The notes under the pieces: generated by a model
Seen by the model: only the letters and a program-made list of their open reading frames with translations
Told to the model about the DNA's origin: nothing
Databases searched by the model: none
In this document: in pieces, positions 1,638-43,433 of the stretch
Numbering within the stretch: position 1 is the stretch's first letter
How the letters are laid out: each line of letters starts with the position of its first letter
Made by a program: the position numbers and the translations under genes
Virus record (IMG/VR): IMGVR_UViG_3300027833_000012
Coordinates: 48,257-112,256 of that record
Reading direction: 5' to 3' (one strand)
Source of the DNA: a virus
Taxonomy: Duplodnaviria > Heunggongvirae > Uroviricota > Caudoviricetes
Length of the DNA: 64,000 nucleotides

Positions 1638-2957
1638 TTAGTCACCACTTGTTTTTACAGGTATCGAATGTATATTTAACCCCCCATTAGAAGTTTTATT
1701 ACTAACTTGGAATCCAGTAGAAGAAGAACTTCTATCAAATTTTTCTTTTAAGAATGATATTTTTCTAACCTCATCAATAACTTTAATTTCTGATTTTATA
1801 CTATTCACTATCATCTCTACAGTAACATTTTCAGTTTCAAGGGTATTATTTCTAAGTTTAAGCATCTTTATAGCATTAAATATATGTGAACCACTAACAC
1901 CCGACATGTGGAATAAACCTACAATAGCTTTATCTGAATAAATATCAATATCTTCATTAGTAATATCATCAAAATTTAATTTTAAAGATTTTAATATAAT
2001 ATTTTTAATATTATCAAATGTTAAGTCATTATAAAGTAATGTTTTATCGAACCTACCAGGTCTTTGTGCCGCTAAGTCTAATAAATGTGCAGCATTTGTA
2101 GTTGCAATAACACCAACATTATCGGCTAATTTGTCAGTACCATCCATAACGTCTAAAAAGTCACCTAATAATTGCGAATAAGACCCAGAGTTTCTATCAC
2201 CTAATGATAAATCTAAATCATCCAAGATAATAAGAGATGGTGCTAGAACATTTGCTAATTGGACCTTTTCGTGTAAATATTCACATATTGGGGTTTTTAT
2301 TATGGTAACACCTTGCTTGTTAAGTTCATTTGCTATAACTATTGTAGATTCCGTTTTACCAACTCCAGGATTACCTACTTTAAGGTATCTTAATATTTTA
2401 TTTGATTTTTTAAAAATATTAACATATAATTTTAAATTATCCATTATCTCATTAGGTAAAAAGATATCATCAAAACTTCTTTTTTCAATATCTTTACAAT
2501 CCCAAGAGAACTTATTCCTAGGCATCGTAAAGTACGACCCCTTAAGTTCTGAAGTTTCTAAAGCACAATATAATAAATAGTTATAAATAAATTCACCACT
2601 ATACTTAGTTTGCCCATTACTTTTCACTTTAACATTATATTTCATGTTAGCACCATCCCTATATTTTTTAAATTGGATAGTGAATAACACTCCATCAAAT
2701 TTAAATAAAAATGAAATACCTTCACTACTAAATGAATCCTCACTTACATTAAAATCAACACATATTGAGTTAGAATATAGTGGACAGATTAAATCAACAC
2801 TTAAACTCTCAGCTTTTTCTTTATCACCATCTATAATGTGAAAAAATGTGTCAAATATTTTAAATATGGCATCATTAGCACCACCCATATTTGAATTGAC
2901 TCTAATCTCAAATTCATTTATTTTATTATCTAATAATTTGTAAATTCTTTTATTCAT
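1638..2957 (-). CDS. AAA+ ATPase (classic clade)
   Basis: Walker A GNPGVGKTE; Walker B IILDDLD; sensor-1/arginine finger ATTNAAHLLDLAAQRPGRFD typical of FtsH/proteasomal AAA. Confidence 0.75.
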   Translation of the reverse strand: MNKRIYKLLDNKINEFEIRVNSNMGGANDAIFKIFDTFFHIIDGDKEKAESLSVDLICPLYSNSICVDFNVSEDSFSSEGISFLFKFDGVLFTIQFKKYRDGANMKYNVKVKSNGQTKYSGEFIYNYLLYCALETSELKGSYFTMPRNKFSWDCKDIEKRSFDDIFLPNEIMDNLKLYVNIFKKSNKILRYLKVGNPGVGKTESTIVIANELNKQGVTIIKTPICEYLHEKVQLANVLAPSLIILDDLDLSLGDRNSGSYSQLLGDFLDVMDGTDKLADNVGVIATTNAAHLLDLAAQRPGRFDKTLLYNDLTFDNIKNIILKSLKLNFDDITNEDIDIYSDKAIVGLFHMSGVSGSHIFNAIKMLKLRNNTLETENVTVEMIVNSIKSEIKVIDEVRKISFLKEKFDRSSSSTGFQVSNKTSNGGLNIHSIPVKTSGD

Positions 2958-6710: not shown

Positions 6711-7043
6711 TTATTTCTTACTTTCTTTTTTAATCCCTAAGTAAGTTCCAACAGAACCACCAATAATAAATGCTAATATCGGTAAAGGTTGACCCTCGGT
6801 TATTGAATTCATACCAAAGGTCATTGATACTAGCCATGTTATACCAATACCATTACCAGTTATTATCGTAGCTAACATTCTTCTTTCCGAAGTATATATA
6901 ACATTTAATGTTCTCAAATAAATAAAAATTATCTGAGATGCTAAAATAACCAGTGCTGAATAATATTGATTTTCAAGTATTTCAGTAAAATCTACCATGA
7001 TATTATATTTTTTATAAAATGTTATACAATCTCTTATTATCAA
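6711..7043 (-). CDS. small membrane protein
   Basis: 110 aa with three hydrophobic helices. Confidence 0.4.
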   Translation of the reverse strand: MIIRDCITFYKKYNIMVDFTEILENQYYSALVILASQIIFIYLRTLNVIYTSERRMLATIITGNGIGITWLVSMTFGMNSITEGQPLPILAFIIGGSVGTYLGIKKESKK

Positions 7044-8127
7044 GGTTAATCATGTAATCTTCTACTGTATCAACCTTACCATCTTTAAGGTTAAAGAATA
7101 AAGAAGAAAACTCCTTAACATCTCTTTTTGATGTTATTTCAAAAACTTTCATTGCGAACTTTTTTTGTTCACCCTTAGTTATGTTTTTAGGTTTGAATGT
7201 GGTTAATTCTTCCCAAACACTTATTAAGTCTAATGTCAGTTTATCGTAATTCACCTTAAGTCTAGTTATCTCTTCTTTTCTTTCTGGAAAAGCAACTACG
7301 AATTCATCAATTTCATTAGATTTAACTACCTCCATAATACTATGCTCACTAGTCTTAGATTTTAAGTGATGTACCGCAATATATTCTGGATTCTTTAATT
7401 TAACTCTATTAAAATTTGCATCGACAACAACATAACCTTCGTCATACCATGGCATATCTTTAAATGTATTAACTAAAACTCCAGCATTTTTAGCATTCAT
7501 ACTGTATGATTTAACTAATGGTACATTTAAAACTTTTGCAACATCCTTTAATGAATTATAGTCAATTTCCAACAACCCTGACAATCTTCTAGCTGCTAAT
7601 AGTGTTATAGAAGACTCCTTATGTGGTTTAACTACAATATTATAAGGTGTGGTCAATTCGAACATATATACAACACCCTTTGTTAAGGCATCTAAATTCA
7701 TATTTATTTTGTTAGCTGTTTCCCAAAATAAATCATTAAATGTTGTTCCGAATTTATTGTTAACCTCACCATCACCTTCAGCAGTACCAGTTGTTGCTGC
7801 AAACCAAGTTTCTTTATTCCAATCCCAATATAATTGAATCATAGAACCATCTAACTTCTCCAATACGTGTGCAGTATCCCAATCAACTTTAGAAGCTAAT
7901 GATTCTGCATTATTGAAGAATTTTTTAAAAGAAAGTGACATAACTTTCCAAGTTCCCTTTTCCAATATTAAACCTCTACACTCTTGAACTTCCGTTAAAG
8001 ACATGTCAGATTCAATCTGATTGTATTTAATAAGAACTTTATCACCATAGTCTTTAACTTTAAGTTTAAAAGCCTTTTCTACACTATCTATACCGTTTTT
8101 ATTTATGTATTCTACTATCTTTAACAT
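7012..8127 (-). CDS. RNA ligase 1 (T4 RnlA-like)
   Basis: Motif I EKLDGS at about residue 90 (T4 RnlA K99 KEDGSL); 371 aa versus 374 aa in T4 RnlA. Confidence 0.75.
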   Translation of the reverse strand: MLKIVEYINKNGIDSVEKAFKLKVKDYGDKVLIKYNQIESDMSLTEVQECRGLILEKGTWKVMSLSFKKFFNNAESLASKVDWDTAHVLEKLDGSMIQLYWDWNKETWFAATTGTAEGDGEVNNKFGTTFNDLFWETANKINMNLDALTKGVVYMFELTTPYNIVVKPHKESSITLLAARRLSGLLEIDYNSLKDVAKVLNVPLVKSYSMNAKNAGVLVNTFKDMPWYDEGYVVVDANFNRVKLKNPEYIAVHHLKSKTSEHSIMEVVKSNEIDEFVVAFPERKEEITRLKVNYDKLTLDLISVWEELTTFKPKNITKGEQKKFAMKVFEITSKRDVKEFSSLFFNLKDGKVDTVEDYMINLDNKRLYNIL

Positions 8128-18786: not shown

Positions 18787-18793
18787 TTTTTTG

Positions 18794-18866
18794 AGACCCT
18801 ACTCAGATTCGAACTGAGACTGTAGCTTTCGTAGAGCTAAGTGCTTGTCCATTACACCATAGAGCC
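18794..18866 (-). tRNA. tRNA-Arg (anticodon ACG)
   Basis: rc folds GGCUCUA-UG-GUGU/ACAC... anticodon arm UAGCU-CUACGAA-AGCUA, T arm CUCAG-UUCGAAU-CUGAG, acceptor 3' UAGGGUC. Confidence 0.75.
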
Positions 18867-18870
18867 AATT

Positions 18871-18950
18871 TGTAGCGTAAGTCGGAATTGAACCGACCCA
18901 GCAAACCTTATGAGGGTAAGCCCTCCACCTTGGAGCTACGCAATTTTTGA
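18871..18950 (-). tRNA. tRNA-like gene, non-canonical
   Basis: Clear T arm GUCGG-UUCAAUU-CCGAC and a 6/7-bp acceptor (GCGUAGC/CUUACGC). The interior has a GAGGG-CUUA-CCCUC tetraloop hairpin instead of a 7-nt anticodon loop; about 67 nt only. Confidence 0.3.
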
Positions 18951-19020
18951 GACCCTACCCAGATTCGAACTGGGGCTATAACTTTAGAAGAGTTAGGTGC
19001 TTCCGCTACACCATAGAGCC
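18950..19020 (-). tRNA. tRNA-Arg (anticodon UCU)
   Basis: GGCUCUA-UG-GUGU-AGCGGA-AGCAC; anticodon arm UAACU-CUUCUAA-AGUUA; T arm CCCAG-UUCGAAU-CUGGG. Confidence 0.8.
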
Positions 19021-19023
19021 TTA

Positions 19024-19209
19024 TTATTTTTTATTATTTAACTTTTTTAATTGGGTGATTATCTCATTTAACATACCAAGAAGAGACCCGAATAAAAGTG
19101 CTAAAGATAGTTTATTATAAAATACCATTTCTGAAGGTATTAATATCACAAATGTAAGGGCACTGTAAATAAACCATTGAACTAAACCTTTATAATTATA
19201 TGTTTTCAT
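19024..19209 (-). CDS. small membrane protein
   Basis: 61 aa; two hydrophobic helices. Confidence 0.35.
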   Translation of the reverse strand: MKTYNYKGLVQWFIYSALTFVILIPSEMVFYNKLSLALLFGSLLGMLNEIITQLKKLNNKK

Positions 19210-19213
19210 AAGC

Positions 19214-19480
19214 TTAACCTCTAGTTTTTATTAAATCATTTAATTTTATAATATTTTTACTTACCCATTCATCTAACCCATATATTTGATAATCATCAAA
19301 ATTATATTCCATATGGTTATCATTACTTAAACCCTTAGACTCTAGTAACATATATTCTACACTAAATATATCATTAGCCTCAACAACAATATTATACTCG
19401 AAAAAATCTCCTTCACCACCGCCAGATAATATTACAACAAATTTTTTCATGTTATTACATATTAAAATTAGAACCTCCAT
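19214..19480 (-). CDS. hypothetical protein
   Basis: 88 aa. Confidence 0.4.
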   Translation of the reverse strand: MEVLILICNNMKKFVVILSGGGEGDFFEYNIVVEANDIFSVEYMLLESKGLSNDNHMEYNFDDYQIYGLDEWVSKNIIKLNDLIKTRG

Positions 19481-19544
19481 CCAGATTCGAACTGGAACTA
19501 AAACTTTAGAAGAGTTTTGTGCTTATCCATTACACCATGGAGGC
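19472..19544 (-). tRNA. tRNA-Arg (anticodon UCU), second copy
   Basis: GCCUCCA acceptor; anticodon arm AAACU-CUUCUAA-AGUUU; T arm UCCAG-UUCGAAU-CUGGA. Confidence 0.75.
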
Positions 19545-19552
19545 TTATATTG

Positions 19553-19630
19553 TGGTCCAGGTGAGACTCGAACTCACATGTGACCAAATTACGGTTTCAA
19601 CTGCTTATGAGGCAGAGCCGATACTGGACC
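19553..19630 (-). tRNA. tRNA-like gene with CAU (Met/Ile2-type) loop, non-canonical architecture
   Basis: Perfect 7-bp acceptor GGUCCAG/CUGGACC; T arm GUGAG-UUCGAGU-CUCAC. The CUGC-CUCAUAA-GCAG hairpin lies only 8 nt after the acceptor (no normal D arm), and 23 nt separate it from the T arm. Confidence 0.45.
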
Positions 19631-19638
19631 TTATTTTG

Positions 19639-19715
19639 TTGTGCGAAAGGGATTCGAACCCTTATTTCCAACCTTTACCTTAGTCACGCTTATCAGACGT
19701 GCTGGTTACCGCACA
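19639..19715 (-). tRNA. tRNA-like gene with GAU (Ile-type) loop, non-canonical architecture
   Basis: Acceptor UGUGCGG/UCGCACA; T arm AAGGG-UUCGAAU-CCCUU. The anticodon arm CACGU-CUGAUAA-GCGUG is almost identical to E. coli tRNA-Ile(GAU) but displaced toward the 5' end. The D-arm-equivalent sequence lies 3' of it (CCAG...UUGG pairing). Confidence 0.45.
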
Positions 19716-19785
19716 ATATTACACTTTTATATCACAAAGATACAACTAATAATTTAAATACACAAGTAATTTAAATATTATTTTG

Positions 19786-19857
19786 CGGACATGGAGAATT
19801 ACGATATCTCGACCCTTCGGTTAACAACCGAACGCTCTTCCTCTGAGCTACATGTCC
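19786..19857 (-). tRNA. tRNA-Asn (anticodon GUU), copy 1
   Basis: GGACAUG-UA-GCUC-AGAGGAA-GAGC-G-UUCGG-UUGUUAA-CCGAA...; acceptor 3' CAUGUCC; T loop variant AUCGUAA. Confidence 0.7.
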
Positions 19858-19868
19858 TAATTATTTTG

Positions 19869-19940
19869 CGGACATGGAGAATTACGATATCTCGACCCTT
19901 CGGTTAACAACCGAACGCTCTTCCTCTGAGCTACATGTCC
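19869..19940 (-). tRNA. tRNA-Asn (anticodon GUU), copy 2
   Basis: Identical to copy 1. Confidence 0.7.
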
Positions 19941-19948
19941 TAATTTAG

Positions 19949-20034
19949 TAGAAAGACTGGGACTCGAACCCAGGGACCCCTTTTGAGGGCCTACGGTTTA
20001 GCAAACCGCTGCATTACCACTCTGCCACCTTTCC
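19949..20034 (-). tRNA. tRNA-Ser (anticodon GCU), type II
   Basis: GGAAAGG acceptor; D arm GCA/UGC with GG loop; anticodon arm GCGGU-UUGCUAA-ACCGU; long variable arm; T arm CUGGG-UUCGAGU-CCCAG. Confidence 0.8.
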
Positions 20035-20039
20035 AATTG

Positions 20040-20157
20040 TGTAAGAAATAGGATTCGAACCTATGAATGATTACCTTCTCTGATAATCTCAGTATAACTA
20101 ATGTTAACATACCATTTTCAAGTACCCTGGTGCTTTCAACCACTCAGCCATTCTTAC
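20040..20157 (-). tRNA. 118-nt tRNA-like gene (Ser/Leu-type D arm) with about 30 nt of extra internal sequence
   Basis: Perfect acceptor GUAAGAA/UUCUUAC; D arm GCU-GAGUGGUUGAA-AGC; T arm AUAGG-UUCGAAU-CCUAU; no canonical anticodon arm located; contains the palindrome AUGUUAACAU. Confidence 0.4.
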
Positions 20158-20179
20158 ATATCTTTATGAATATAATGTA

Positions 20180-20464
20180 CTAATTATTTTTCTTATATTC
20201 ATCAAAAAACCAACTATAATATTTTTTTGACTCCATAAAACCATAATCAGTTATATTAACATCTTCTTGATATATATTTTCTGTATGATTACAAAATGGA
20301 CAATCTTTAACAATAATCCCATCTAAATGTGCGTCAAACCCAGAATGAAACCCCATATTAACTAAAATTTCTTTATTACACTTATTACATTCACATACAC
20401 CAATTATAGAAGCTAATGGGTCATCTTTTAGCACTTCTTTAACATTTTTAACTAACTTTTCCAT
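20180..20464 (-). CDS. Cys-rich small protein (zinc-binding?) inside the tRNA island
   Basis: 94 aa; CECNKCNK ... CPFCNH. Confidence 0.45.
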   Translation of the reverse strand: MEKLVKNVKEVLKDDPLASIIGVCECNKCNKEILVNMGFHSGFDAHLDGIIVKDCPFCNHTENIYQEDVNITDYGFMESKKYYSWFFDEYKKNN

Positions 20465-20490
20465 ATTACAAAATTTTTACATTACTATGG

Positions 20491-20577
20491 TAGAGAGAAT
20501 GGGACTCGAACCCACACAGCGAATGAACGCTGAACAACTTTCCAAGCTGCTGCAATACCAATTATGCTTACCTCTCT
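20491..20577 (-). tRNA. tRNA-Ser (anticodon GGA), type II
   Basis: Acceptor AGAGAGG/UCUCUCU; anticodon arm GCAGC-UUGGAAA-GUUGU; variable arm CAGCG-UUCAUU-CGCUG; T arm GUGGG-UUCGAGU-CCCAU. Confidence 0.7.
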
Positions 20578-20696
20578 ATTTACGAGTTCTTAGTTAATAC
20601 CGAAGTATATTCTGGTGTTACTCGCCTTATATGTCACCTACTATTATTCGGTCACATACGTCACTAACCCTAAGATTAGTTGTTTATCGTACAAAA

Positions 20697-20774
20697 AGTC
20701 AAGGTAGTAGATAGAGTAATCGAAACCCATGGTGTAACCCATCCCTGGGTTTCAAGCCCAGTTTGTCACCTTGA
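20697..20774 (+). ncRNA. tRNA-like element with aberrant topology
   Basis: 7-bp GUCAAGG...CCUUGAC closing stem and T-arm-like CUGGG-UUUCAAG-CCCAG, with 7 extra nt between T arm and acceptor. Long internal hairpin GAAACCCA...UGGGUUUC. Strand uncertain. Confidence 0.25.
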
Positions 20775-20792
20775 CGGTACCTACTAATTTTG

Positions 20793-20885
20793 CGGAAGAA
20801 GTGGGATTCGAACCCACACGGCTTTTTACACCCCTTCGTTTTCAAGACGAGCACTGTTACCCAGAATCTTTCAGTTTATTCTTCC
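20793..20885 (-). tRNA. tRNA-Ser (anticodon UGA), type II with enlarged D loop
   Basis: Acceptor GGAAGAA/UUCUUCC; anticodon arm UCGU-CUUGAAA-ACGA; long variable arm; T arm GUGGG-UUCGAAU-CCCAC. Confidence 0.6.
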
Positions 20886-20898
20886 TTATTTTATTTCG

Positions 20899-20970
20899 CA
20901 CGTCATCCAAGATTCGAACTCGGAGCCTTCGGGTTGGAGCCGAAAATGTTAGCCGTTACACCAATGACGT
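20899..20970 (-). tRNA. tRNA-Trp (anticodon CCA)
   Basis: ACGUCAU-UG-GUGU-AACGGCUA-ACAU-U-UUCGG-CUCCAAC-CCGAA-GGCU-CCGAG-UUCGAAU-CUUGG-AUGACGU. Confidence 0.8.
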
Positions 20971-21049
20971 GTGTTTTAATTTTAATATGTCAATGAACTT
21001 TCTTTCATAAACCCCGACTGACTGTACAGTCGAGGTAAATATCATTATG

Positions 21050-21123
21050 TCAACCGTATGGGAATCGAACCCATGTTACTCGTTTCACAGACGAGCCACC
21101 TTTCCAATTTGGTGCAACGGAGG
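21050..21123 (-). tRNA. tRNA-His-like (anticodon GUG), imperfect acceptor
   Basis: D arm CACC/GGUG; anticodon arm CUCGU-CUGUGAA-ACGAG; T arm AUGGG-UUCGAUU-CCCAU. The acceptor CCUCCGU/ACGGUUG has two pyrimidine-pyrimidine mismatches. Confidence 0.5.
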
Positions 21124-21168
21124 GATGTTGAGTGAGGTTTTTACATTCACTTTATTTTGGGTGTTACC

Positions 21169-21241
21169 ACGGTATCGAGCCGAGTTCTTCAGATTCACAG
21201 TCTGACGCTTCACCTTAAAGCTTGAAACACCATATTTAATT
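21169..21241 (-). tRNA. second GUG-loop tRNA-like gene with degenerate T arm
   Basis: Anticodon arm UCAGA-CUGUGAA-UCUGA at canonical 27-43; acceptor 6/7; T loop CUCGAUA with a mismatched stem. Confidence 0.4.
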
Positions 21242-22704: not shown

Positions 22705-22781
22705 TGGTGCGAATAGTGGGAATCGAACCCACTACATCCGAGTTTAGAAGTCGGTACCCCAACCATTAGGGTCTTACTCGC
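22705..22781 (-). tRNA. candidate amber-suppressor tRNA (anticodon CUA) with encoded CCA
   Basis: GCGAGUA acceptor pairs UAUUCGC, then A and CCA. D arm CCC/GGG with G18G19. Anticodon stem CCGA/UCGG plus C-C closing pair and 7-nt loop UUCUAAA: U33, CUA at 34-36, A37 A38, as in supF-type loops. T arm GUGGG-UUCGAUU-CCCAC. Confidence 0.55.
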
Positions 22782-22813: not shown

Positions 22814-22823
22814 ACAAAGATAC
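22814..22823 (-). promoter_or_regulatory. -7 promoter element (coding strand GTATCTTTGT, TAnnTTTG) upstream of the suppressor tRNA - Pth2 unit
   Basis: Plus-strand acaaagatac; same motif family as other intergenic promoters. Confidence 0.45.
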
Positions 22824-23007
22824 TACATATTTTTGGATTAATCAAGTTTTTTTTAAAAATAATTAAAAACTTATAATAGATTGTTATTTAACGATTTATA
22901 TTCGATTATATTATTTGTTTTTTTTTAAGTTATCCTAAGATTATCTTAATTCGTTTAAGTTAAACGTTGGGATACCATCAACTCTAATATGACCATAGAA
23001 TCTGTTG

Positions 23008-23526: not shown

Positions 23527-24813
23527 TTATTCTATTAAACCTGGGTTATATGAATTTGCTAAACGTTCTAGTTCATTTGCGTATTCTGGTATTATAATTT
23601 TCATAATATTAATATCTCCTTTAGGTATTATATTATTAAGACTAGTAGAAAGTAACTGAATTGCCTTATCCTCATCACCATCCACCATATCCATCCAAAG
23701 ACTTGCATCCTTAGTGTATTTTTTACCTTTAATACTTTTTATACCTCTTAATGCTCTAATTATATGCATATATTTCGATTTATAAGATTTACCTAAAAAA
23801 CCATTTAAATTTTTATCAATTTCTTTATATATTTTAGGTGTATAAATACCCTTAGTTTCGGATACAAACATATCAATACCCATTTTTTCAATAATATATT
23901 TCAAAGTCTCATATCTACCTTCAACTAAAACATGTCTATATATATCATCATTAATATCAGTACTTCTTATTTTTTCAAGTATTTCACTATCTGAGATATC
24001 TGATAAATCTTTTTTACTAATATTATTTACTTCTTCATGATATGTATCACTCCATTGTTCTATAAATTTAGAGAACTCTATATTATATGAACCATACATA
24101 TCAATTGGTGCTTTTATTTTTTTATCAGTACATAACACACCAACTACATACCTAGAAATTGGGTCTTGTATATTCCAATCTCCATCCTCAATTAAGTAAA
24201 ATATTACATCACCATCAAGTATTGAATCTCTAATTTGACCAGCACCACCTTCACCATCGTGCTGCCCTTTACTTGTCCAATTAGAATCATCATCTTTTAA
24301 ATCTTTCATATCTCTAAGGTCTTCACAAGATGTTATCCTAGGTTTTGCTGATTTACTAGCTAAATCATGTGGATGTCTCGATACTACAACATATAAATCA
24401 CTTCCTTCATCATTTGAACGATTTAATCTATCTAAGTATGAATTATAATTTTTAAGTAATTTAAAATCTAATTTATTTAATATTTTACTAATTTTAATAT
24501 TTTGATTACTTTTATTATTTTTAGCAATATTTTTATCCATATCAACAATAGAATAATTATATTTTTTAAGCATACTTGAAATATCATTATTTAGTTTTTC
24601 AATATTTTTAACATCAAATTTAAGTTTTGGTGTCTTCCTTGTTGGAGTGATTTGTTTACCAGTCTCCAAATTATAGTATAATCTATATACATTTTTACCA
24701 AAAATATCATCTAATTTACTTTTATCCCAAGTATTCCTTAATTGTTTACTTAAATTTAATGATATACTCTCATTCAAACCTTCCCTTAATAAATTTTGTA
24801 TAAATTTTTTCAT
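23527..24813 (-). CDS. leader-family protein A2 (MKKFIQNLLREGLN...)
   Basis: 428 aa; same leader; body unrelated to A1. Confidence 0.5.
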   Translation of the reverse strand: MKKFIQNLLREGLNESISLNLSKQLRNTWDKSKLDDIFGKNVYRLYYNLETGKQITPTRKTPKLKFDVKNIEKLNNDISSMLKKYNYSIVDMDKNIAKNNKSNQNIKISKILNKLDFKLLKNYNSYLDRLNRSNDEGSDLYVVVSRHPHDLASKSAKPRITSCEDLRDMKDLKDDDSNWTSKGQHDGEGGAGQIRDSILDGDVIFYLIEDGDWNIQDPISRYVVGVLCTDKKIKAPIDMYGSYNIEFSKFIEQWSDTYHEEVNNISKKDLSDISDSEILEKIRSTDINDDIYRHVLVEGRYETLKYIIEKMGIDMFVSETKGIYTPKIYKEIDKNLNGFLGKSYKSKYMHIIRALRGIKSIKGKKYTKDASLWMDMVDGDEDKAIQLLSTSLNNIIPKGDINIMKIIIPEYANELERLANSYNPGLIE

Positions 24814-25928
24814 ATTTCCATAAATTCTGGTACATTTTCACCAGGTGGGTTGTTTTCACTAACATATTTTATTAATTCTTTAAAATAATCTTCTAATTCT
24901 CTTTGATTATCTTCTTCACCATTTATGTCTTTTATTAATTTACTTGTTAAAACACTAACTGTTTCATTGTTTAAATTATTAGTAAGTTTTAATAAATCAC
25001 TAACATCAACTCTAAAATGATAATCACGTCTACTTTCGTATTCATTCATTAAGAAAATAACATAAACATCATCTAAAGTTAATTCATTAACATTAACATC
25101 TTCCTTGACCTCATAACCACTTACGTATAAAAGTTTTAATGAATCAATAAAATCTTCATTAATTTTTTCTTTTTTTACATCATTATATAAGTAATTTTGT
25201 AAATTACTTATATTATCAACGCTAATTATTTCATCAAAACCTTCACTTTTAGAAGGTTGTTCGTATGATTTAAACATTCTATCAAAAGCTTGTGGTGGTA
25301 TTGTTTTTGATTTACCCATTCGTTTAGCTGATTCTGCTCTATTATTTGCCACTTGTTTAATTAATTCTTCAGAACCTTTAAATTTAAAATCAACAGCAAT
25401 TTTAATATAATCACCTTCATTACCTTCGATTGCTTTTAATGCTCCTTTTCTTGAACCAGAATTCATATTAGTCATATCCACTACTATCACTTTACCACTA
25501 GGGTGTGCGTCTTTAACCCTTGAATTGAATAAATTTTGAACTTTATTATTTGCATTAATTACTTTATCAAAAACAGTGTCGGCCCATGTCATCCAGCTTG
25601 GTGATTCTATAACAGTACCATATTTTTCGTCAACATCACCTATTTTAGCATCTTCTGGTGGTGTTGAAAATAAATCATCATATGTCCAATTGTAAGTTGA
25701 AGCAACTTCTTCAACAATATCATCTCTACTAATTACATATGAATTAGGGAAATTACTTTTAATCCATGTTGATTTACCTACTGATGGTGGGCCTACTAAA
25801 ACTATTATTTTTCTCTTTTTTAACCCCCCATCTACCTCTTCACGTAAAAGACTATTTTGTTTAATATATCTTTGTTCTGAAAGTATATTAGCTTTCATCA
25901 TATTTTTAAATTTATCTAATTTTCTCAT
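24810..25928 (-). CDS. polynucleotide 5'-kinase (T4 Pnk kinase-domain-like) behind a 30-aa shared leader B
   Basis: VLVGPPSVGKSTW and FPNSYVISRDDIVEE parallel T4 Pnk GCPGSGKSTW and NPGFYNINRDDYRQ; DMTNMN ~ DTNLN; no DxDGT phosphatase domain; leader MRKLDKFKNMMKANILSEQRYIKQNSLLRE. Confidence 0.7.
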   Translation of the reverse strand: MRKLDKFKNMMKANILSEQRYIKQNSLLREEVDGGLKKRKIIVLVGPPSVGKSTWIKSNFPNSYVISRDDIVEEVASTYNWTYDDLFSTPPEDAKIGDVDEKYGTVIESPSWMTWADTVFDKVINANNKVQNLFNSRVKDAHPSGKVIVVDMTNMNSGSRKGALKAIEGNEGDYIKIAVDFKFKGSEELIKQVANNRAESAKRMGKSKTIPPQAFDRMFKSYEQPSKSEGFDEIISVDNISNLQNYLYNDVKKEKINEDFIDSLKLLYVSGYEVKEDVNVNELTLDDVYVIFLMNEYESRRDYHFRVDVSDLLKLTNNLNNETVSVLTSKLIKDINGEEDNQRELEDYFKELIKYVSENNPPGENVPEFMEI

Positions 25929-26730: not shown

Positions 26731-28227
26731 TTATTTTAAGTGCGGTTTAATTGCGAATGATATATAACATCCTACCATAAATCCAAGTGTTGATGGAATT
26801 GGGAAAACAACATCCTTACCGAACTTTGTCTTATATTTTTCTCTATTAAGTATTAAGCTATCAAATCTTTTAAAGATGTAATATGATAACCCTATTAAAA
26901 TATAGTTACCAGAAGCTACCATTGCAATTGCTAACCCACTTAATAGTCCATGAGTAAAGTTTATAATAGAGTGTTTTGAAACTGTCTTAATAGTTTCGTT
27001 AGCATCCATCATTTTTCTTTCTTTTTCTATAATTTTTTTAATTTTCATTTCTCTTTTTTTTAATTTAGGGTAAATATATGACCTTTTTTTAGTTCTACCA
27101 AATATTTTATCAATAAATTTATCTTTCTCTAACGTTTTGATAACATTACCTAATTCTGGCCCTGGTTTCAAGTCGTATTTCTCTAATACTTCACCCCCAG
27201 TTACTGTTAATTCAAAAACAATGAATGCATTAACAAAATTCTCATCAAGATTAATAAGTTTAGAAAACTTAACAATTTGTTTAGGTGTTAAACCAGACCT
27301 TTTTTGTTCTTTTTTCATAGAAGAAACTTCAAAAATAGATTTATCATTAACAAAGTTAGTAAATAGAATTAAGAATTTAATACCTCTTATTTCCTCACTA
27401 CTATATTTTAATTTATTTAACGTTTTAACAATATTTAAAATATTATTATCACGTAAAAGAACAGTTAACAATAATATTGGGTCACGTTCTTCAATTAAGA
27501 AATTATTGACCATTAACCCTTTAAAGATATCCTTGAATAAGCCAAATTTATTAGTTAAAGTTAAAAAGTGAGTTACTGATTTAGAAGTCTTAAGACCCTT
27601 AAGGAATTCATCTCTAATTCGCTCACCAGAAACACCTTCTAATGAAGAATCTTTAATTAAAGCTTGTTCGGTATCAGTATGAAGGTTTGAACCGAATCTA
27701 CCAGCAAATCTGATTGCCCTTAGTATTCTAAGTCTATCCTCATTAAATCTTTCTTCAGCTTTACCTACTGTTCTTACCACACCGTTTTTAATATCTTCAA
27801 CACCACCCACTAAATCAACGATTTCATTAGTATCTATGTCAAAAAATAGTGCATTAATTGTTAAGTCACGTCTTAATACATCCTTATCAATGGTTGTAAA
27901 TTCTACTGAATCTGGTCTTCTACCAGATGATAGGTCACTTCTGAATGTAGCAATTTCGAATTCATTTGAGTCAGTGAATACGTTAATTACACCGAATGAC
28001 TTACCCGTTGGTAGAGTTCTGATACCAGCTACCTCCATCATTTCTTCTACTTTATCTGGTGTTGCGTCTGTTGCTAAATCCCAATCTTTAATTGGTTTGT
28101 TTAAAATAGAATCACGAACAGCACCACCAACAATGTAAAGTTTAAAACCATTACTTAAGAAAATATCCTTAATGGTTAAAATATCCTTTGGGATTGGTAG
28201 GTTAAATTTAATTCTTTTTGTGTTCAT
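26731..28227 (-). CDS. cca: CCA-adding enzyme / tRNA nucleotidyltransferase (class II) with C-terminal membrane-helix extension
   Basis: YIVGGAVRD (GGxVRD) and DWDLATD motifs; C-terminal about 90 aa hydrophobic. Confidence 0.7.
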   Translation of the reverse strand: MNTKRIKFNLPIPKDILTIKDIFLSNGFKLYIVGGAVRDSILNKPIKDWDLATDATPDKVEEMMEVAGIRTLPTGKSFGVINVFTDSNEFEIATFRSDLSSGRRPDSVEFTTIDKDVLRRDLTINALFFDIDTNEIVDLVGGVEDIKNGVVRTVGKAEERFNEDRLRILRAIRFAGRFGSNLHTDTEQALIKDSSLEGVSGERIRDEFLKGLKTSKSVTHFLTLTNKFGLFKDIFKGLMVNNFLIEERDPILLLTVLLRDNNILNIVKTLNKLKYSSEEIRGIKFLILFTNFVNDKSIFEVSSMKKEQKRSGLTPKQIVKFSKLINLDENFVNAFIVFELTVTGGEVLEKYDLKPGPELGNVIKTLEKDKFIDKIFGRTKKRSYIYPKLKKREMKIKKIIEKERKMMDANETIKTVSKHSIINFTHGLLSGLAIAMVASGNYILIGLSYYIFKRFDSLILNREKYKTKFGKDVVFPIPSTLGFMVGCYISFAIKPHLK

Positions 28228-35612: not shown

Positions 35613-36359
35613 TTATACGAATGAAACTATTTCTAAATCGAAAGTTAAATCCTTACCAGCTAATGGGTTGTTCCCGTTGATTACAACTGTCTCGTCTTTT
35701 ACCTCAGATACAACAACATTCATAGGTCCATGTTCTGTTTGAGTTGTTAGTAACGCACCCACTTGAATGTTTTCTGGGACAAATTTCTTTTCAATTTCCT
35801 GGAAACGTTCAGGTAATACATCACCATATGCTTGAGATGATTCAATTGTGACTGTTTTCTTTTCACCTTGCTTCATCCCCTTTAAAGCATCTTCGAATCC
35901 AGGTATAACCATACCTTTACCTAATTCTACTGTTATAGCTTCTTTATCGGTAAATTGTGTTCCTTCAACAGCAACAGATGAGTCAAAGACTTCACCGTTA
36001 TCATACTTACCCGTATAGTGCACTTTTACAATGCTATTCTCATTAATTTCTGACATAATTTTCTCTTTTTTATTTACTTTATTATTTAATTTCAACCTTA
36101 AAACTGGTATTATTTTACTAGAAGTTTGGTAGTCAACATCGAGTTCAAAATTAATTAAATGCTTTTTTAAACAATGGTGTAATCTATAATTTAACCCACC
36201 ACCCTCTTCTATATCCTCTAACATGAAAAATTTAAAAGGTTTATCACCTTCTTCATAAGCTTCACCAGTAGTGTACATAGTAGGTGTTACTTTATTTTTA
36301 AAATCATCATCATTAATTTTATCCATTTGTTTATCGTAAAACTCACTTATATTAACCAT
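35613..36359 (-). CDS. FKBP-type peptidyl-prolyl cis-trans isomerase with N-terminal extension
   Basis: HYTGKYDNGEVFDSS...ELGKGMVIPGFEDALKGMKQGEKK FKBP signature. Confidence 0.75.
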   Translation of the reverse strand: MVNISEFYDKQMDKINDDDFKNKVTPTMYTTGEAYEEGDKPFKFFMLEDIEEGGGLNYRLHHCLKKHLINFELDVDYQTSSKIIPVLRLKLNNKVNKKEKIMSEINENSIVKVHYTGKYDNGEVFDSSVAVEGTQFTDKEAITVELGKGMVIPGFEDALKGMKQGEKKTVTIESSQAYGDVLPERFQEIEKKFVPENIQVGALLTTQTEHGPMNVVVSEVKDETVVINGNNPLAGKDLTFDLEIVSFV

Positions 36360-36423: not shown

Positions 36424-36429
36424 TTAAAA

Positions 36430-36458
36430 TAAAAAAACCCACTTAGTAGTGGGTTTTA
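36430..36458 (-). terminator. hairpin plus U7 terminator ending the tmRNA-like unit
   Basis: On minus strand AAACCCACUACUAAGUGGGUUUUUUU. Confidence 0.55.
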
Positions 36459-36500
36459 GTTGTTTAAACGTTTCTGTAAAAGGTACAAAAACGTGTCAAA

Positions 36501-36868
36501 TGTGGAGATGGAGGGGCTCGAACCCTCGTATCAACCTAAGCTTAAAAAGCTTTCTACATGTTTAGGTTAACATTTTTCTTATGTTCCAAAAATAGTTAAT
36601 TTTTTTATGGATACAAAAAACAAAATCCACTAACCATTTTTTTTAACATCACAAGGTTTAGTTTCGTGATGGTGGGCGAACCCACTACAATCATTTAGGC
36701 GAATGCTACCTCTCCTGATTCAACTTCTACAGAAGCGTTTTCAAGGAAATTTACGTCAATGTCAAACGAGTTGTCATCTAAAAAAATCGATAGGTTATTT
36801 AAGTGTTTCCATCTAACACTACATGCTTACAAGAAAAGTCATTAAGTGAGCAATTCCAAGTCATCCCC
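36501..36868 (-). ncRNA. ssrA: tmRNA-like (ssrA-like) RNA, about 368 nt
   Basis: 5' GGGGAUG pairs with 3' CAUCUCC (G3:U70 wobble, A73). T arm GAGGG-UUCGAGC-CCCUC. 5' segment ACUUGGAAUUGC resembles the tmRNA D-loop analogue. Internal tag-like frame ...ASVEVESGEVAFA-UAA (36736->36695). No ORF longer than 30 aa. Own promoter and terminator. Embedded UUCG tetraloop hairpin GUGGG-UUCG-CCCAC. Confidence 0.6.
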
Positions 36869-36902
36869 AATATGTTTAAGAACATTTATAATTAAATATA
36901 CA

Positions 36903-36912
36903 CAAATATACT
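36903..36912 (-). promoter_or_regulatory. -7 promoter element for the tmRNA-like transcript
   Basis: acaaatatac, about 35 nt upstream of the proposed mature 5' end, with no coding gene downstream. Confidence 0.45.
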
Positions 36913-36961
36913 AATAAACTTTTAATTATGCAAGTTTATTTAAAAATATTTTTCATATTCT

Positions 36962-37297
36962 TTAAAAATATAAAATATAAATATCTTTACCGAGCTTGTG
37001 AGCCTTACCTATACTGTCCCTAGTACCTCTTGATTTTTTATCCCAACAAGCTAATACCATATCACAATCATTTATTATATCTGAATTTCTAATGAATCCA
37101 GCAGCCTTACCATGCTTATCCCAATCTGGTTTATGTATTATGGTTTTTAAACTGTTTTCAGATGCATACCTTTCACTTAATTTATCTGCACCATGTGCAC
37201 CTCCAGAAATAATAGTAGATGGCTTAAGACGGTCTAAAACCACCTTAAGCCTATTATAATCATCAAATGACCTACTACCTACTACTGCAATTTTCAT
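36962..37297 (-). CDS. SLOG/DprA-LOG-like Rossmann protein (DUF2493-like)
   Basis: VVGSR...ISGGAHGADKLSERYA motif. Confidence 0.5.
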   Translation of the reverse strand: MKIAVVGSRSFDDYNRLKVVLDRLKPSTIISGGAHGADKLSERYASENSLKTIIHKPDWDKHGKAAGFIRNSDIINDCDMVLACWDKKSRGTRDSIGKAHKLGKDIYILYF

Positions 37298-38034
37298 TAA
37301 GGGTTCTTTTTCAATATAATACCATCGATTATACCGTATTCTTTAGCTTCTTCAGCTGTTAACCAGAAATCTCTATTGGCATCTAACTGAACTTGTTCTG
37401 ATGTTTTACCAGTAAATTCACCAAGCATTTCAAATAAAATATCATTATATTTATCACCCTCAGCTACACTAATCCTTACATCGGCCATAGTTCCTTGTGC
37501 TCCAGTACTAACTTGGTGTAACATAACCTTACTATGTTTAAGACTATAACGCTTACCCTTAGTTCCGTTACCTAATAATATTGACCCCATCGATGCCGCC
37601 ATACCTGTGTTGATTGTCATTACATCAGATGTTATATAGTTCATAACATCAACCATACCTAACCCAGATTTAACTGAACCACCTGGTGAGTCAACGTGCA
37701 TAGTTATATCAAGATTACTATCAATACTATCTAAGAACATTAATTGTGCCTGTACAACTGTACTCATCATATCGTTTACTGGACCATTAACCCATAAAAT
37801 TCTATCAGCCATCATTCTAGAGAATATGTCCATTTGAGTAACCCTCATAGGTCTTTCCTCTAAGATATATGGTGTTAAACTATTCTTTGGTGTTGAAGCA
37901 CCTACACTCACATTAGAGTATAACTGGCTTTGAATTTTATCCCATGCGTGAAATTGCATTGAACTAACACCCATATGTTGTATAGCGTATTTCTTAAACT
38001 CGCTATAAAAATCTAAATTACCGTATCCTTCCAT
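37297..38034 (-). CDS. clpP: ClpP-family serine protease
   Basis: DSPGGSV, MAASMGS (Ser nucleophile), HQ and D catalytic triad context; 245 aa. Confidence 0.85.
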   Translation of the reverse strand: MEGYGNLDFYSEFKKYAIQHMGVSSMQFHAWDKIQSQLYSNVSVGASTPKNSLTPYILEERPMRVTQMDIFSRMMADRILWVNGPVNDMMSTVVQAQLMFLDSIDSNLDITMHVDSPGGSVKSGLGMVDVMNYITSDVMTINTGMAASMGSILLGNGTKGKRYSLKHSKVMLHQVSTGAQGTMADVRISVAEGDKYNDILFEMLGEFTGKTSEQVQLDANRDFWLTAEEAKEYGIIDGIILKKNP

Positions 38035-41969: not shown

Positions 41970-43433
41970 TTAAATAACAATCTGACTATATCTATCAGAA
42001 TTTATTGTTTTATACATAATATTAATTGGTGACATATCTTCACCACTTAAGATACTTGTTAATATACTAGGACTAAACCCAGATACTAATGCGGCATTCA
42101 TCTTGTTAAATTGAACTGGATTATTATCACTAGAAGCGTTAATATTCCAATAAACAATCTTAGGTGTGTCATAACCAGACTCAGTATATAACCTTTCAAT
42201 CATTTTTTGAGCTGTAGGGTTATCACCACCCCTAATACCTCTATTAAATTCCATGTCACTAAGAATTAAAATAGTTGTTGGCATTTCTTCTTTAGGTACA
42301 TTCATTTTAGTAGCTTTATCTAATAAAACTTGGAAAGTTATTTCTAAATTTGTTGAACCACCCCAGTTAGCATTTTTCATTTGTTTATAACGTTCACTAA
42401 GTGAACCACTCACATATTCAAGTCTTGGGTTATTATCGAATGTTATGAATCCATTTTTAAATGGTCCTTCATTTCTTTCAGAAATATATAAACCTAACGA
42501 TATTGCTACATCCATACAATTAAGTGTTGGTGAACCACCAGCTGAACATGTCATTGAGTACGACACATCAACTACAGGAAGAACCATTTCTTCATTACCT
42601 TCTAAATAGTTAGGTAATGAAGACCATTGTGTATTTGCACCAAGTACATTACCAGACTTTAAACTTTTTAAAACATCATATGGGTATATAGCACCAGCAT
42701 TTATTTTGACATCACCAGAATTAACTTGCTCAAGATAATCAGTAAATCTAACAGTATCGTGTTTAGTAAACGCTCTCATGTAGTCAGACATAGCCTTAGA
42801 TGGTACATGAGAATAGTTAATTTTATCAAACTCCTTAGCACACATTTGTTGCTCAATAGTATTAGATAAACCTACAATTAAATTTCTATATTTTTTTTGA
42901 GATAAGTTTAAGTGTTCTCTTAATTTTTTAGCTAAGAAGTTCTTCTTACTATTTTTAGAGTTACCTCTTGGCATCCATTTAGCACATAAATTATTAGACT
43001 CTTTTAAACCTTTAGAAATAACATCTAAAGCTTCTTTTTCTAAAGGCGTACCTAATAAAGTAAATAAATCATCCCATCTACCATAAACTGGTATTAAGTG
43101 TAGATTTTTACTTAAAGTTTTAGTTTGGTGTGTTGCCAGGTATGTGATTATTTCTTTAAATGTAGACCTTTCACCAGCACCACCTCTAATATCCCTAACC
43201 CAGAATAATATTTTCATAGCCGTTAACGCATCTTCAGCAAATGCTTTAGTAAATGAATTAATCTTAATAGATTCATCTTTACCTCTAACAGCACCTATCT
43301 TAAAAAATAGGTCAACACATGAGTTTAGTGTTGTAGAATTTGTTGTCATACCATTTTGGGTATAACCATCTTCAGTTCTTAATGCGTCTATTAATCTCAT
43401 AATATTTTTTTTAGTGTGATACAAATATATCAC
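41970..43433 (-). CDS. vWA-domain protein (MIDAS DVSYS), possible TROVE/Ro-like
   Basis: VVDVSYSM (DxSxS) ... TILILSDMEF; 487 aa. Confidence 0.45.
   Translation of the reverse strand: MIYLYHTKKNIMRLIDALRTEDGYTQNGMTTNSTTLNSCVDLFFKIGAVRGKDESIKINSFTKAFAEDALTAMKILFWVRDIRGGAGERSTFKEIITYLATHQTKTLSKNLHLIPVYGRWDDLFTLLGTPLEKEALDVISKGLKESNNLCAKWMPRGNSKNSKKNFLAKKLREHLNLSQKKYRNLIVGLSNTIEQQMCAKEFDKINYSHVPSKAMSDYMRAFTKHDTVRFTDYLEQVNSGDVKINAGAIYPYDVLKSLKSGNVLGANTQWSSLPNYLEGNEEMVLPVVDVSYSMTCSAGGSPTLNCMDVAISLGLYISERNEGPFKNGFITFDNNPRLEYVSGSLSERYKQMKNANWGGSTNLEITFQVLLDKATKMNVPKEEMPTTILILSDMEFNRGIRGGDNPTAQKMIERLYTESGYDTPKIVYWNINASSDNNPVQFNKMNAALVSGFSPSILTSILSGEDMSPINIMYKTINSDRYSQIVI

Follow-up and report, generated by a model that had tools for sequence, protein, structure and literature searches.

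We analysed a 64,000-nt stretch of the IMG/VR virus record IMGVR_UViG_3300027833_000012 (positions 48,257 to 112,256; Caudoviricetes), hereafter called the window. On its minus strand, a ClpP gene, a YspA/SLOG-family gene, a locus for a transfer-messenger RNA (tmRNA) and a gene for an FKBP-type peptidyl-prolyl isomerase follow one another. Coordinates are window positions, and features lie on the minus strand unless stated otherwise. The tmRNA had been proposed in an initial annotation made from the sequence and its open reading frames (ORFs). That annotation placed ClpP 430 bp away, and the ClpP gene indeed ends 429 bp upstream of the tmRNA 5' end; its statement that the interval held no ORF longer than 30 codons was incorrect, as mechanical ORFs there reach 39 codons.

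The tmRNA gene and its conserved structure

ARAGORN called a tmRNA at 36502–36868 on the minus strand, with the tag DNSFDIDVNFLENASVEVESGEVAFA. Rfam model RF00023 matched 36500–36868 end to end (model positions 1–374) with 64.5 bits, against a gathering score of 47 (E 7.5e-23). The initial annotation had named ARAGORN and a tmRNA covariance model as checks; both were positive and gave the same coordinates. Together with covariation, they place the mature one-piece tmRNA at 36503–36868, 366 nt to the discriminator A36503. Its minimum free energy (MFE) fold reached −89.9 kcal/mol (z = −2.4), modestly below shuffles, and its G+C content was 36%; the whole window has 28.5%. The gene does not encode CCA, as had been noted: the 3' end reads A-CAU, the bases after A36503 being CAU. 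Only a few members of the tmRNA family encode CCA.

Related tmRNA loci numbered 48, with ~39 distinct sequences. We aligned 24 distinct family sequences (mean column identity 64%) and tested 53 pairs, which covered P1, P2, both stems of pseudoknot PK1, the tag-frame helix, the last hairpin before P2 and the T arm. Across these pairs 92.7% of the cells were paired, compared with 41–49% when the partners were slid by 1–3 columns. Changes on both sides had occurred in 27 of the 53 pairs, and the observed values were matched by 0 of 500 shuffles. RNAalifold independently gave the same nested helices, P2 included. All core tmRNA elements are present and are maintained across the family by compensatory evolution.

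The 5' strand of the acceptor stem P1, GGGGAUG (36868–36862), pairs 7/7 with CAUCUCC (36510–36504), including the G3:U70 wobble, and the discriminator A73 is the A at 36503, both as first described. The strands are separated by 351 nt rather than the "about 330 nt" first given. The stem is fully paired in 23 of the 24 sequences and 6/7 paired in the remaining one; pairs 5–7 covary (AU, UA, GC, CG), and G3:U70 and A73 occur in 24/24. The expected T arm, GAGGG-UUCGAGC-CCCUC, was found at 36527–36511, adjoining the acceptor 3' strand (T arm and strand together, 36504–36527); its stem cells were 99.2% paired, with both-side changes in 4 of 5 pairs. The predicted D-loop analogue, ACUUGGAAUUGC, lies at 36861–36850, and its G12 is invariant in the family alignment. 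In two relatives, L025 (4579–4936) and L027, an 11-nt hairpin (GAGC UUA GCUC) directly follows the acceptor 5' strand as an insertion, and the stem itself contains a U-U mismatch. The T loop is GUCAUGC instead of UUCGAnn in several members of marine origin (e.g. L297, L299 and L287).

The two strands of P2 lie at 36821–36849 (RNA nt 20–48) and 36531–36561 (nt 308–338), the latter holding the Bacteroidota-type signature CAUGUAGAAAGC. Of its 19 pairs, 11 had changed on both sides. Eight of the 11 pairs in the outer part had at most one unpaired cell, and the other three were unpaired in 5, 14 and 17 of the 24 sequences; the inner part, GCAUGU:ACAUGU, was almost invariant. PK1 (36789–36820) consists of stem 1, AGUGUU:AACACU (nt 49–54:62–67), which was 92.4% paired with three pairs changed on both sides, and stem 2, GAUGG:CUAUC (nt 56–60:76–80), which was 92.5% paired and maintained through one-sided GU/GC/AU changes. 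From the end of PK1 to the resume codon there are 13 nt. Helix P5 (36689–36707, nt 162–180) carries the stop codon in or beside its loop; in the window, as in the majority of family members, the stop is within the loop. Per-sequence folds gave the P5 hairpin with compensatory changes in 22 of the 24 members (e.g. GCUGUA...UAUAGC versus GCAGUU...CACUGC); the MFE fold deviated in L005 and L011.

The PK2–PK4 region (36565–36685) is reduced in size and folds into four hairpin elements. The first is the UUCG hairpin (36685–36673), whose tetraloop the initial annotation had pointed out. The second, CAUCAC...GUGAUG (36671–36630), has a loop CUAAACC that can pair with GGUUAG and is a candidate pseudoknot. 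The third is UGGAU...AUCCA (36629–36608). The fourth, GGAACAU...AUGUU-AA-CC (36587–36565), is the last before P2, and 6 of its 7 pairs had changed on both sides. The best non-overlapping H-type pseudoknots, of which two were found, summed to −19.2 kcal/mol, compared with −7.9 ± 3.5 for the best three in shuffles. On this folding analysis, the presence of PK2–PK4 in the window tmRNA is plausible. The pseudoknot series and the resume codon had also been named as features to locate: PK1 and the resume codon were located, and the full PK2–PK4 series was not demonstrated.

The tag reading frame and its Bacteroidota relatives

ARAGORN, the Rfam alignment and the frame shared by the 24 sequences define a tag frame at 36695–36775, with 26 sense codons encoding DNSFDIDVNFLENASVEVESGEVAFA. 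It runs from the resume codon GAC (36775–36773), preceded by UAG-AU with an A at −4, to the stop codon UAA (36697–36695); in the Rfam alignment, GAC falls on the consensus resume codon. The A at −4 before the resume codon has a role in tmRNA. The initial annotation had read the end of this frame, GCA UUC GCC UAA, correctly; its start was misplaced, the resume codon lying further upstream. The frame has no start codon. The resume codon begins with G and is preceded by A at −4 in 24/24 sequences, and is GAC, GGC or GGA across the family.

None of the 24 aligned sequences interrupts the frame or shifts its register, although three separate 3-nt indels occur. Minimal changes at the three codon positions outside the hairpin described below were 13/11/29 (chi-square ~11, p ~0.004), and the conserved tag residues are encoded with many synonymous alternatives. 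Because of this register, third-position excess and synonymous variation, the tag frame looks as if it evolves like a translated one. The family tag follows the pattern [DG]-N-x-[FL]-...-N-F-L-...-G-E-[LVM]-A-[VLFY]-A. The window tag ends in V-A-F-A and family tags end in A-(V/L/F/Y)-A; the canonical (L/V/M)-A-A end was not encountered.

The frame also contains a stem-loop (36712–36748), with an outer helix UUCC:GGAG (nt 121–124:154–157) and an inner hairpin GCUUC UGUA GAAGU (nt 133–146). It is present in 24/24 sequences; the outer helix is invariant, and the inner stem has 5–8 bp with sequences unrelated between lineages. So structured a frame, with a helix-enclosed hairpin inside the ORF, would be in keeping with a tmRNA-derived decoy that binds SmpB, alanyl-tRNA synthetase (AlaRS), EF-Tu or ribosomes and thereby blocks or senses host trans-translation, the frame not being productively translated. 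The reduced PK2–PK4 region and the lack of a nearby SmpB gene point the same way, and host-state sensing through tmRNA has been mentioned (Al-Shayeb et al., 2020; PMC7162821). A decoy would, however, leave unexplained why the frame varies in length only by multiples of three and has no in-frame stops in 24 A+T-rich sequences, and why it shows the third-position excess, the conserved A at −4, a resume codon starting with G and a stop near the P5 loop. Every alanylation identity element is also retained. We therefore give the decoy only a slim chance.

We compared the window tmRNA with a sample of 106 Bacteroidota tmRNAs that carry the same P2/T-arm signature; the combination of CAUGUAGAAAGC and GGTTCGA matches almost only Bacteroidota genomes. 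Both groups share the architecture, the CAUGUAGAAAGC...GGUUCGA signature, G3:U70 and A73. Their 5' domains (94 versus 95.5 nt in Bacteroidota) and 3' domains (57 versus 59 nt) are similar in length, and in both the resume codon specifies Gly or Asp and is followed by Asn. By these sequence features the window tmRNA is of the Bacteroidota type, its nearest counterparts in the sample being those of Chitinophagaceae/Chitinophagales. They differ in the tag. The phage frame has 78–81 nt, 2.6 times the ~30 nt of Bacteroidota, whose tags are almost all 8–10 codons long (GENNYALAA, GNTQYAMAA, DNTSYALAA), compared with 26 codons in the window, roughly three times the ~9 usual in Bacteroidota. Bacteroidota tags end almost without exception in (L/M/F/I/Y)-A-A, whereas the phage tags end in A-(V/L/F/Y)-A. 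The helix-enclosed hairpin in the ORF is an addition of the phage family, and the window tmRNA, with its 36% G+C, lies among phage genes and has a phage promoter.

The window ClpP is closest to those of uncultured phages of 634–642 kb and of Lak megaphages, i.e. the Mahaphage group, which has been assigned to Bacteroidetes hosts (Al-Shayeb et al., 2020; PMC7162821). With ARAGORN, Rfam, the covariation of 24 sequences and a translated-looking frame all supporting the tmRNA interpretation of the initial annotation, we consider it very probable that this huge phage, a member of the Mahaphage/Lak-related group, encodes a functional one-piece tmRNA (ssrA) whose gene descends from Bacteroidota.

Huge phages have been reported to carry tmRNAs and SmpB (Al-Shayeb et al., 2020; PMC7162821), and tmRNAs are also annotated in phage G (PMC12484599), Mar_Mega_1 (PMC9723777) and Cellulophaga phage Calle (PMC8776804). 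Like the present gene, these were found with ARAGORN in genomes rich in tRNAs and other translation genes; unlike the present analysis, those reports list the genes without a tag family, a structure or a ClpP/FKBP linkage. The phage G tag, AKLNITNNELQVA, likewise has a non-canonical end, Q-V-A (PMC12484599). In the literature we found no description of a family-wide long tag with a changed end, a stem-loop in the reading frame or a ClpP-tmRNA-FKBP neighbourhood.

We also found a second huge-phage tmRNA family (family B) of ~395 nt, encoded beside SmpB and in the opposite orientation to it; the viral contigs concerned reach 308 kb (L223, 3908–4300; L219, 4137–4531; also L206, L211, L214, L216 and L217). 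Like the window family, it is Bacteroidota-like and occurs on large viral contigs, and its tags are long (GNILDKMSAIGLIRAEEVVVA and GNVLDKMAAIGLIREDAAVVA are examples), with ~21 codons, a start GN and an end V-V-A (GNILDKMSAIGLIRAEEVVVA). It differs in being only distantly similar (nhmmer E 1e-10 to 1e-17), in being linked to SmpB and not to ClpP, and in the tag itself, which has a different sequence and contains basic residues. Judging from these sequences, tag ends unlike those of the host may be a wider habit of phage tmRNAs.

Expression signals and gene neighbourhood

A promoter for the tmRNA was assigned to 36903–36933, with TTG(CAT) at 36933–36928 and TAGTATATTTG at 36913–36903. TTG (36933–36931) is followed by 20 nt (14 nt after TTGCAT) and then by TATATTTG (36910–36903). 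The consensus of Bacteroidota sigma-A promoters is TTTG at −33 and TAnnTTTG at −7, and by its sequence the tmRNA promoter is of this −33/−7 type (TAnnTTTG). With at most one mismatch, TAGTATATTTG has 16 copies in the window, all on the minus strand, which is the coding strand (expected 5.7 ± 2.2). The copies that we checked against the ORF list or the RNA-gene calls are found a short distance ahead of gene starts; the tmRNA is the sole unit behind the copy at 36913–36903. The same type of promoter element is found upstream of most relatives' tmRNAs.

Between promoter and mature RNA lies a precursor 5' leader of at most ~34 nt (36869–36902), ending in GTTCTTAAACATATT (36883–36869). The upstream flanks of 24 family members (L005–L033) showed that this is the window's form of a conserved 14-nt motif, GTTCTTTAATTTAT, which nearly all members have immediately before the mature RNA. 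The motif could provide a context for RNase P, signal some other processing event or belong to the start site. Immediately downstream of the mature RNA, the trailer folds into a 16-bp hairpin (36463–36500; −24.7 kcal/mol, z = −6.2), which may have a role in processing. A motif in its 5' strand, GAC..TTTTTGTAC, is common to about half of the family (L006, L007, L013–L015, L018, L022, L025 and L030). A processing stem between leader and trailer appeared possible by eye in the window and in L007 but was inconsistent in other members, and we rejected it.

An intrinsic terminator follows at 36427–36457. It comprises a 10-bp hairpin, AAAACCCACU ACUA AGUGGGUUUU (36457–36434), and then a U run; the terminator scan gave two matches, being one hairpin read on both strands, compared with 0.3 expected. 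The FKBP gene has a separate promoter (36422–36394) downstream of this terminator. The promoter and terminator that the initial annotation had ascribed to the RNA were thus both recovered (TAGTATATTTG at 36913–36903; hairpin at 36457–36434 followed by a T run). Lying on the same strand between those genes, the RNA might be read as a structured 5' untranslated region (UTR) or riboregulator of FKBP, or as the 3' UTR of the SLOG/ClpP operon. Because the unit has its own promoter and its own strong terminator, and FKBP a separate promoter beyond it, the tmRNA unit is not a 5' UTR. Many relatives, moreover, lack FKBP or SLOG or have other genes in between, with the RNA unchanged, and the locus scores as a full tmRNA. 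The probability of a UTR is, in our judgement, negligible.

The ClpP gene (37297–38034) encodes 245 aa and matches Pfam CLP_protease at 1.4e-57 over profile positions 6–180 of 182. It aligned with solved bacterial ClpPs over the whole fold (E 7e-49), including the AASMG, HQ and RDF motifs. By sequence, the window ClpP is a genuine one, with the full fold and a Ser-His-Asp triad. It has an N-terminal extension of ~50 aa (37297–37450, minus strand) that is absent from the solved bacterial ClpPs compared and could be a propeptide or a docking segment. The only AAA+ ATPase of the window (1638–2957, minus strand; PF00004, 2e-14) has 439 aa with a 160-aa N-terminus and lies 34 kb from ClpP. Between ClpP and the tmRNA is the YspA/SLOG-family gene (36962–37297, 111 aa; Pfam YAcAr, 1.2e-14), a variable insert found only in the window, L005 and L023/L024. 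Downstream of the tmRNA, the FKBP gene (35613–36359) encodes 248 aa (Pfam FKBP_C, 3.2e-20).

To trace this neighbourhood, 80 loci of ClpP relatives in IMG/VR were screened for tmRNA. The 29 loci with the window gene order (orf219, orf135, orf83, ClpP, then orf78 downstream) all carry one, 0.1–1.8 kb downstream of ClpP and on the same strand. ARAGORN found 21 of them and Rfam the remaining 8, and a family profile returned exactly these 29. A metagenome scan with the tag end that the window shares with L007 gave 19 further loci, several from TARA ocean samples; all those with enough flank retain the order ClpP, tmRNA, FKBP, orf76, orf78. FKBP is the first recognised gene downstream of the tmRNA in L007, L010, L011, L013 and L017, and the viral contigs that carry relatives reach 362 kb. 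In several relatives the ORF after the tmRNA begins MARKEKK.HYIY and by eye resembles a GIY-YIG homing endonuclease. No tmRNA was found within 6–8 kb of ClpP loci outside the window's clade, or within 8 kb of ClpP in LR745206, LR756502, LR756504 and Lak-C1, so the ClpP link is not general to Mahaphage-type phages. Conservation of the order ClpP, tmRNA, FKBP is limited to this phage clade. In deposited phage genomes, blastn with the locus and one family member returned no similar tmRNA, even at E ≤ 1; an exact 25-mer of T arm and acceptor had no match in IMG/VR, and FKBP used as an IMG/VR probe confirmed no relatives.

These loci also bear on whether the gene might be the host's own ssrA, with the window being a chimera of the assembly or the junction of a prophage. 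Integration at ssrA is common, and the RNA is clearly of the Bacteroidota type. The gene is nevertheless full-length, its phage-gene neighbours on both sides keep their order across 48 viral or metagenomic loci, its promoter is a copy of the motif that recurs in the phage, and neither an integrase nor a repeat junction was seen. Its tag is unlike all but two of the 106 Bacteroidota tags, and these two long outliers are unrelated in sequence. The family has, in addition, diverged deeply (64% mean column identity) within a constant phage context. Host origin in this sense appears highly unlikely.

Elsewhere, the window encodes RNA ligases, a sigma-70 factor, a lysozyme, an SbcC-like nuclease and a tRNA cluster. 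The nucleotidyltransferase that the initial annotation had called a CCA-adding enzyme, at 26731–28227, is a class II enzyme of the CCA-adding type, with a PolyA_pol head (8.9e-37), an RNA-binding domain and a weak tRNA_NucTran2_2 match. Profile matches also place a set of RNA repair and quality-control genes around the tmRNA (289–1323, 7012–8127, 24810–25928, 26731–28227 and 41970–43433, all on the minus strand): two RNA ligases, an AAA_33 kinase-like protein, the CCA-adding-type enzyme and a DUF2828/DUF7788 protein. The last, which we take to be Ro/TROVE-like, also matches phrog_850 ('RNA-binding protein').

In the tRNA cluster (18793–21230, minus strand), Rfam found four tRNA-like matches beyond those of ARAGORN, including 19553–19630, 21160–21230 and 20040–20157; the last spans 118 nt, and an insertion or intron may be present. 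A tRNA with the anticodon CUA (amber suppressor; labelled Pyl by ARAGORN) lies at 22705–22781 on the minus strand, with its own promoter motif at 22815–22825. It raised the question of an alternative code, which we rejected for this window: under the standard code 86% is coding and TAA is dominant, and coding density hardly rises if TAG is translated. Six of the 90 window ORFs end in TAG.

Proposed role during infection

Together with what is established for tmRNAs in general, the features above are consistent with the following course. RNase P would cut the precursor at G36868, and 3' trimming would proceed to A36503. CCA would be added by a host enzyme or by the phage nucleotidyltransferase (26731–28227), which could supply the tmRNA's CCA. 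Host AlaRS would charge the tmRNA through G3:U70 and A73, and SmpB, coming from the host or encoded elsewhere in the phage genome, would with EF-Tu deliver Ala-tmRNA to ribosomes that, in the infected cell, have stalled on mRNAs that are broken or lack a stop codon. Translation would resume at GAC (36775) and append A-DNSFDIDVNFLENASVEVESGEVAFA, a tag of 27 residues, and termination at UAA would free the ribosome. The main benefit to the phage is probably that ribosomes are kept available, and the tag most likely marks aborted products for proteolysis. Since a genuine ClpP adjoins the tmRNA and the neighbourhood is conserved, a Clp route is suggested, and our leading guess, which we hold weakly, is that the tagged chains are degraded by the adjacent phage ClpP, working with an unfoldase of the host.

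Several observations weigh against this overall picture of a functional tmRNA and its tag. The pairings of PK2–PK4 received no confirmation from covariation, as the helices differ between lineages and could not be aligned; a search for closer relatives among the 19 metagenome loci found none near the window sequence in this region. The region is also ~40% shorter than in Bacteroidota tmRNAs (~127 versus ~211 nt). PK2–PK4 can be replaced in E. coli, and their unconfirmed state is therefore no bar to membership among tmRNAs. Much of the conservation in the tag overlaps RNA helices (UUCC:GGAG and P5), so selection on the peptide is argued for mainly by frame conservation and the third-position excess. 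Neither SmpB nor ClpX was found in the window or in the flanks of relatives, and the tmRNA would thus depend on partners located elsewhere; a scan of viral contigs for SmpB gave at least 410 carriers, and none of the 80 matches listed was on a contig of this clade. The linkage of ClpP and tmRNA is limited to one clade with shared surrounding gene order, and sister clades have ClpP without a nearby tmRNA, so that the proximity may be inherited synteny only. Finally, the window tag ends in A-F-A and those of the presumed hosts in L/M-A-A, which makes recognition by a ClpX-type system doubtful.

The tag end can be read in two further ways. The first is a functional tmRNA whose tag has been switched away from host ClpXP, being a Lon-type degron, a degron for a phage factor only or a non-degradative tag, with ClpP incidental or otherwise employed. 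The tag of Mesoplasma florum provides a precedent: this long tag with the end NYAFA is recognised by Lon rather than by ClpXP, and E. coli proteases largely spare it (PMC9382460). Like Mesoplasma/Mycoplasma tags, whose Lon-specific type ends in YAFA/FAFA, the window tag has ~27 residues with the charged Ala and a hydrophobic end, AFA; apart from this length and the final three residues, the tags are unrelated in sequence, and the host phylum is another. Mycoplasma moreover lack ClpXP, whereas the window tmRNA adjoins a ClpP gene. In favour of a switch, the window tag has 26 codons and the family ends A-F-A, A-V-A, A-L-A and A-Y-A never become the L/M-A-A of the 106 Bacteroidota tmRNAs. The long tags of family B end in V-V-A and that of phage G in Q-V-A (PMC12484599), and in sister phage clades ClpP persists with no tmRNA beside it. 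On the other side, ClpP, tmRNA and FKBP remain together at every locus of the lineage despite inserted unrelated genes. We regard a switched tag as a real possibility, somewhat short of an even chance.

The second, which we think rather unlikely, is a quality-control system of the phage's own. The A-Phi-A degron would be poorly read by host ClpXP and would either be routed to the adjacent phage ClpP through an adaptor or unfoldase of host or phage, or be kept apart from host substrates. FKBP would add a foldase and complete a proteostasis module, and the hairpin in the tag frame could also have a regulatory function or bind a protein.

The presence of tmRNA genes in phages has yet to be explained, and the literature so far only lists them. 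Phage tmRNAs as such are already known, and what makes the present family of moderate interest is its long tag with a changed end, its in-frame stem-loop and its ClpP-tmRNA-FKBP neighbourhood. It presents a tmRNA reading frame that has grown by insertion of an RNA stem-loop. As the tag is unmistakably unlike the host's, mass spectrometry could separate phage-driven from host-driven tagging. The RNA type and the promoter motifs offer an independent host assignment (Bacteroidota, possibly Chitinophagales) for an uncultured clade of huge phages. In huge phages the tag end has shifted repeatedly from Phi-A-A to A-Phi-A, which leads to the testable idea that these phages redirect the fate of rescued proteins.

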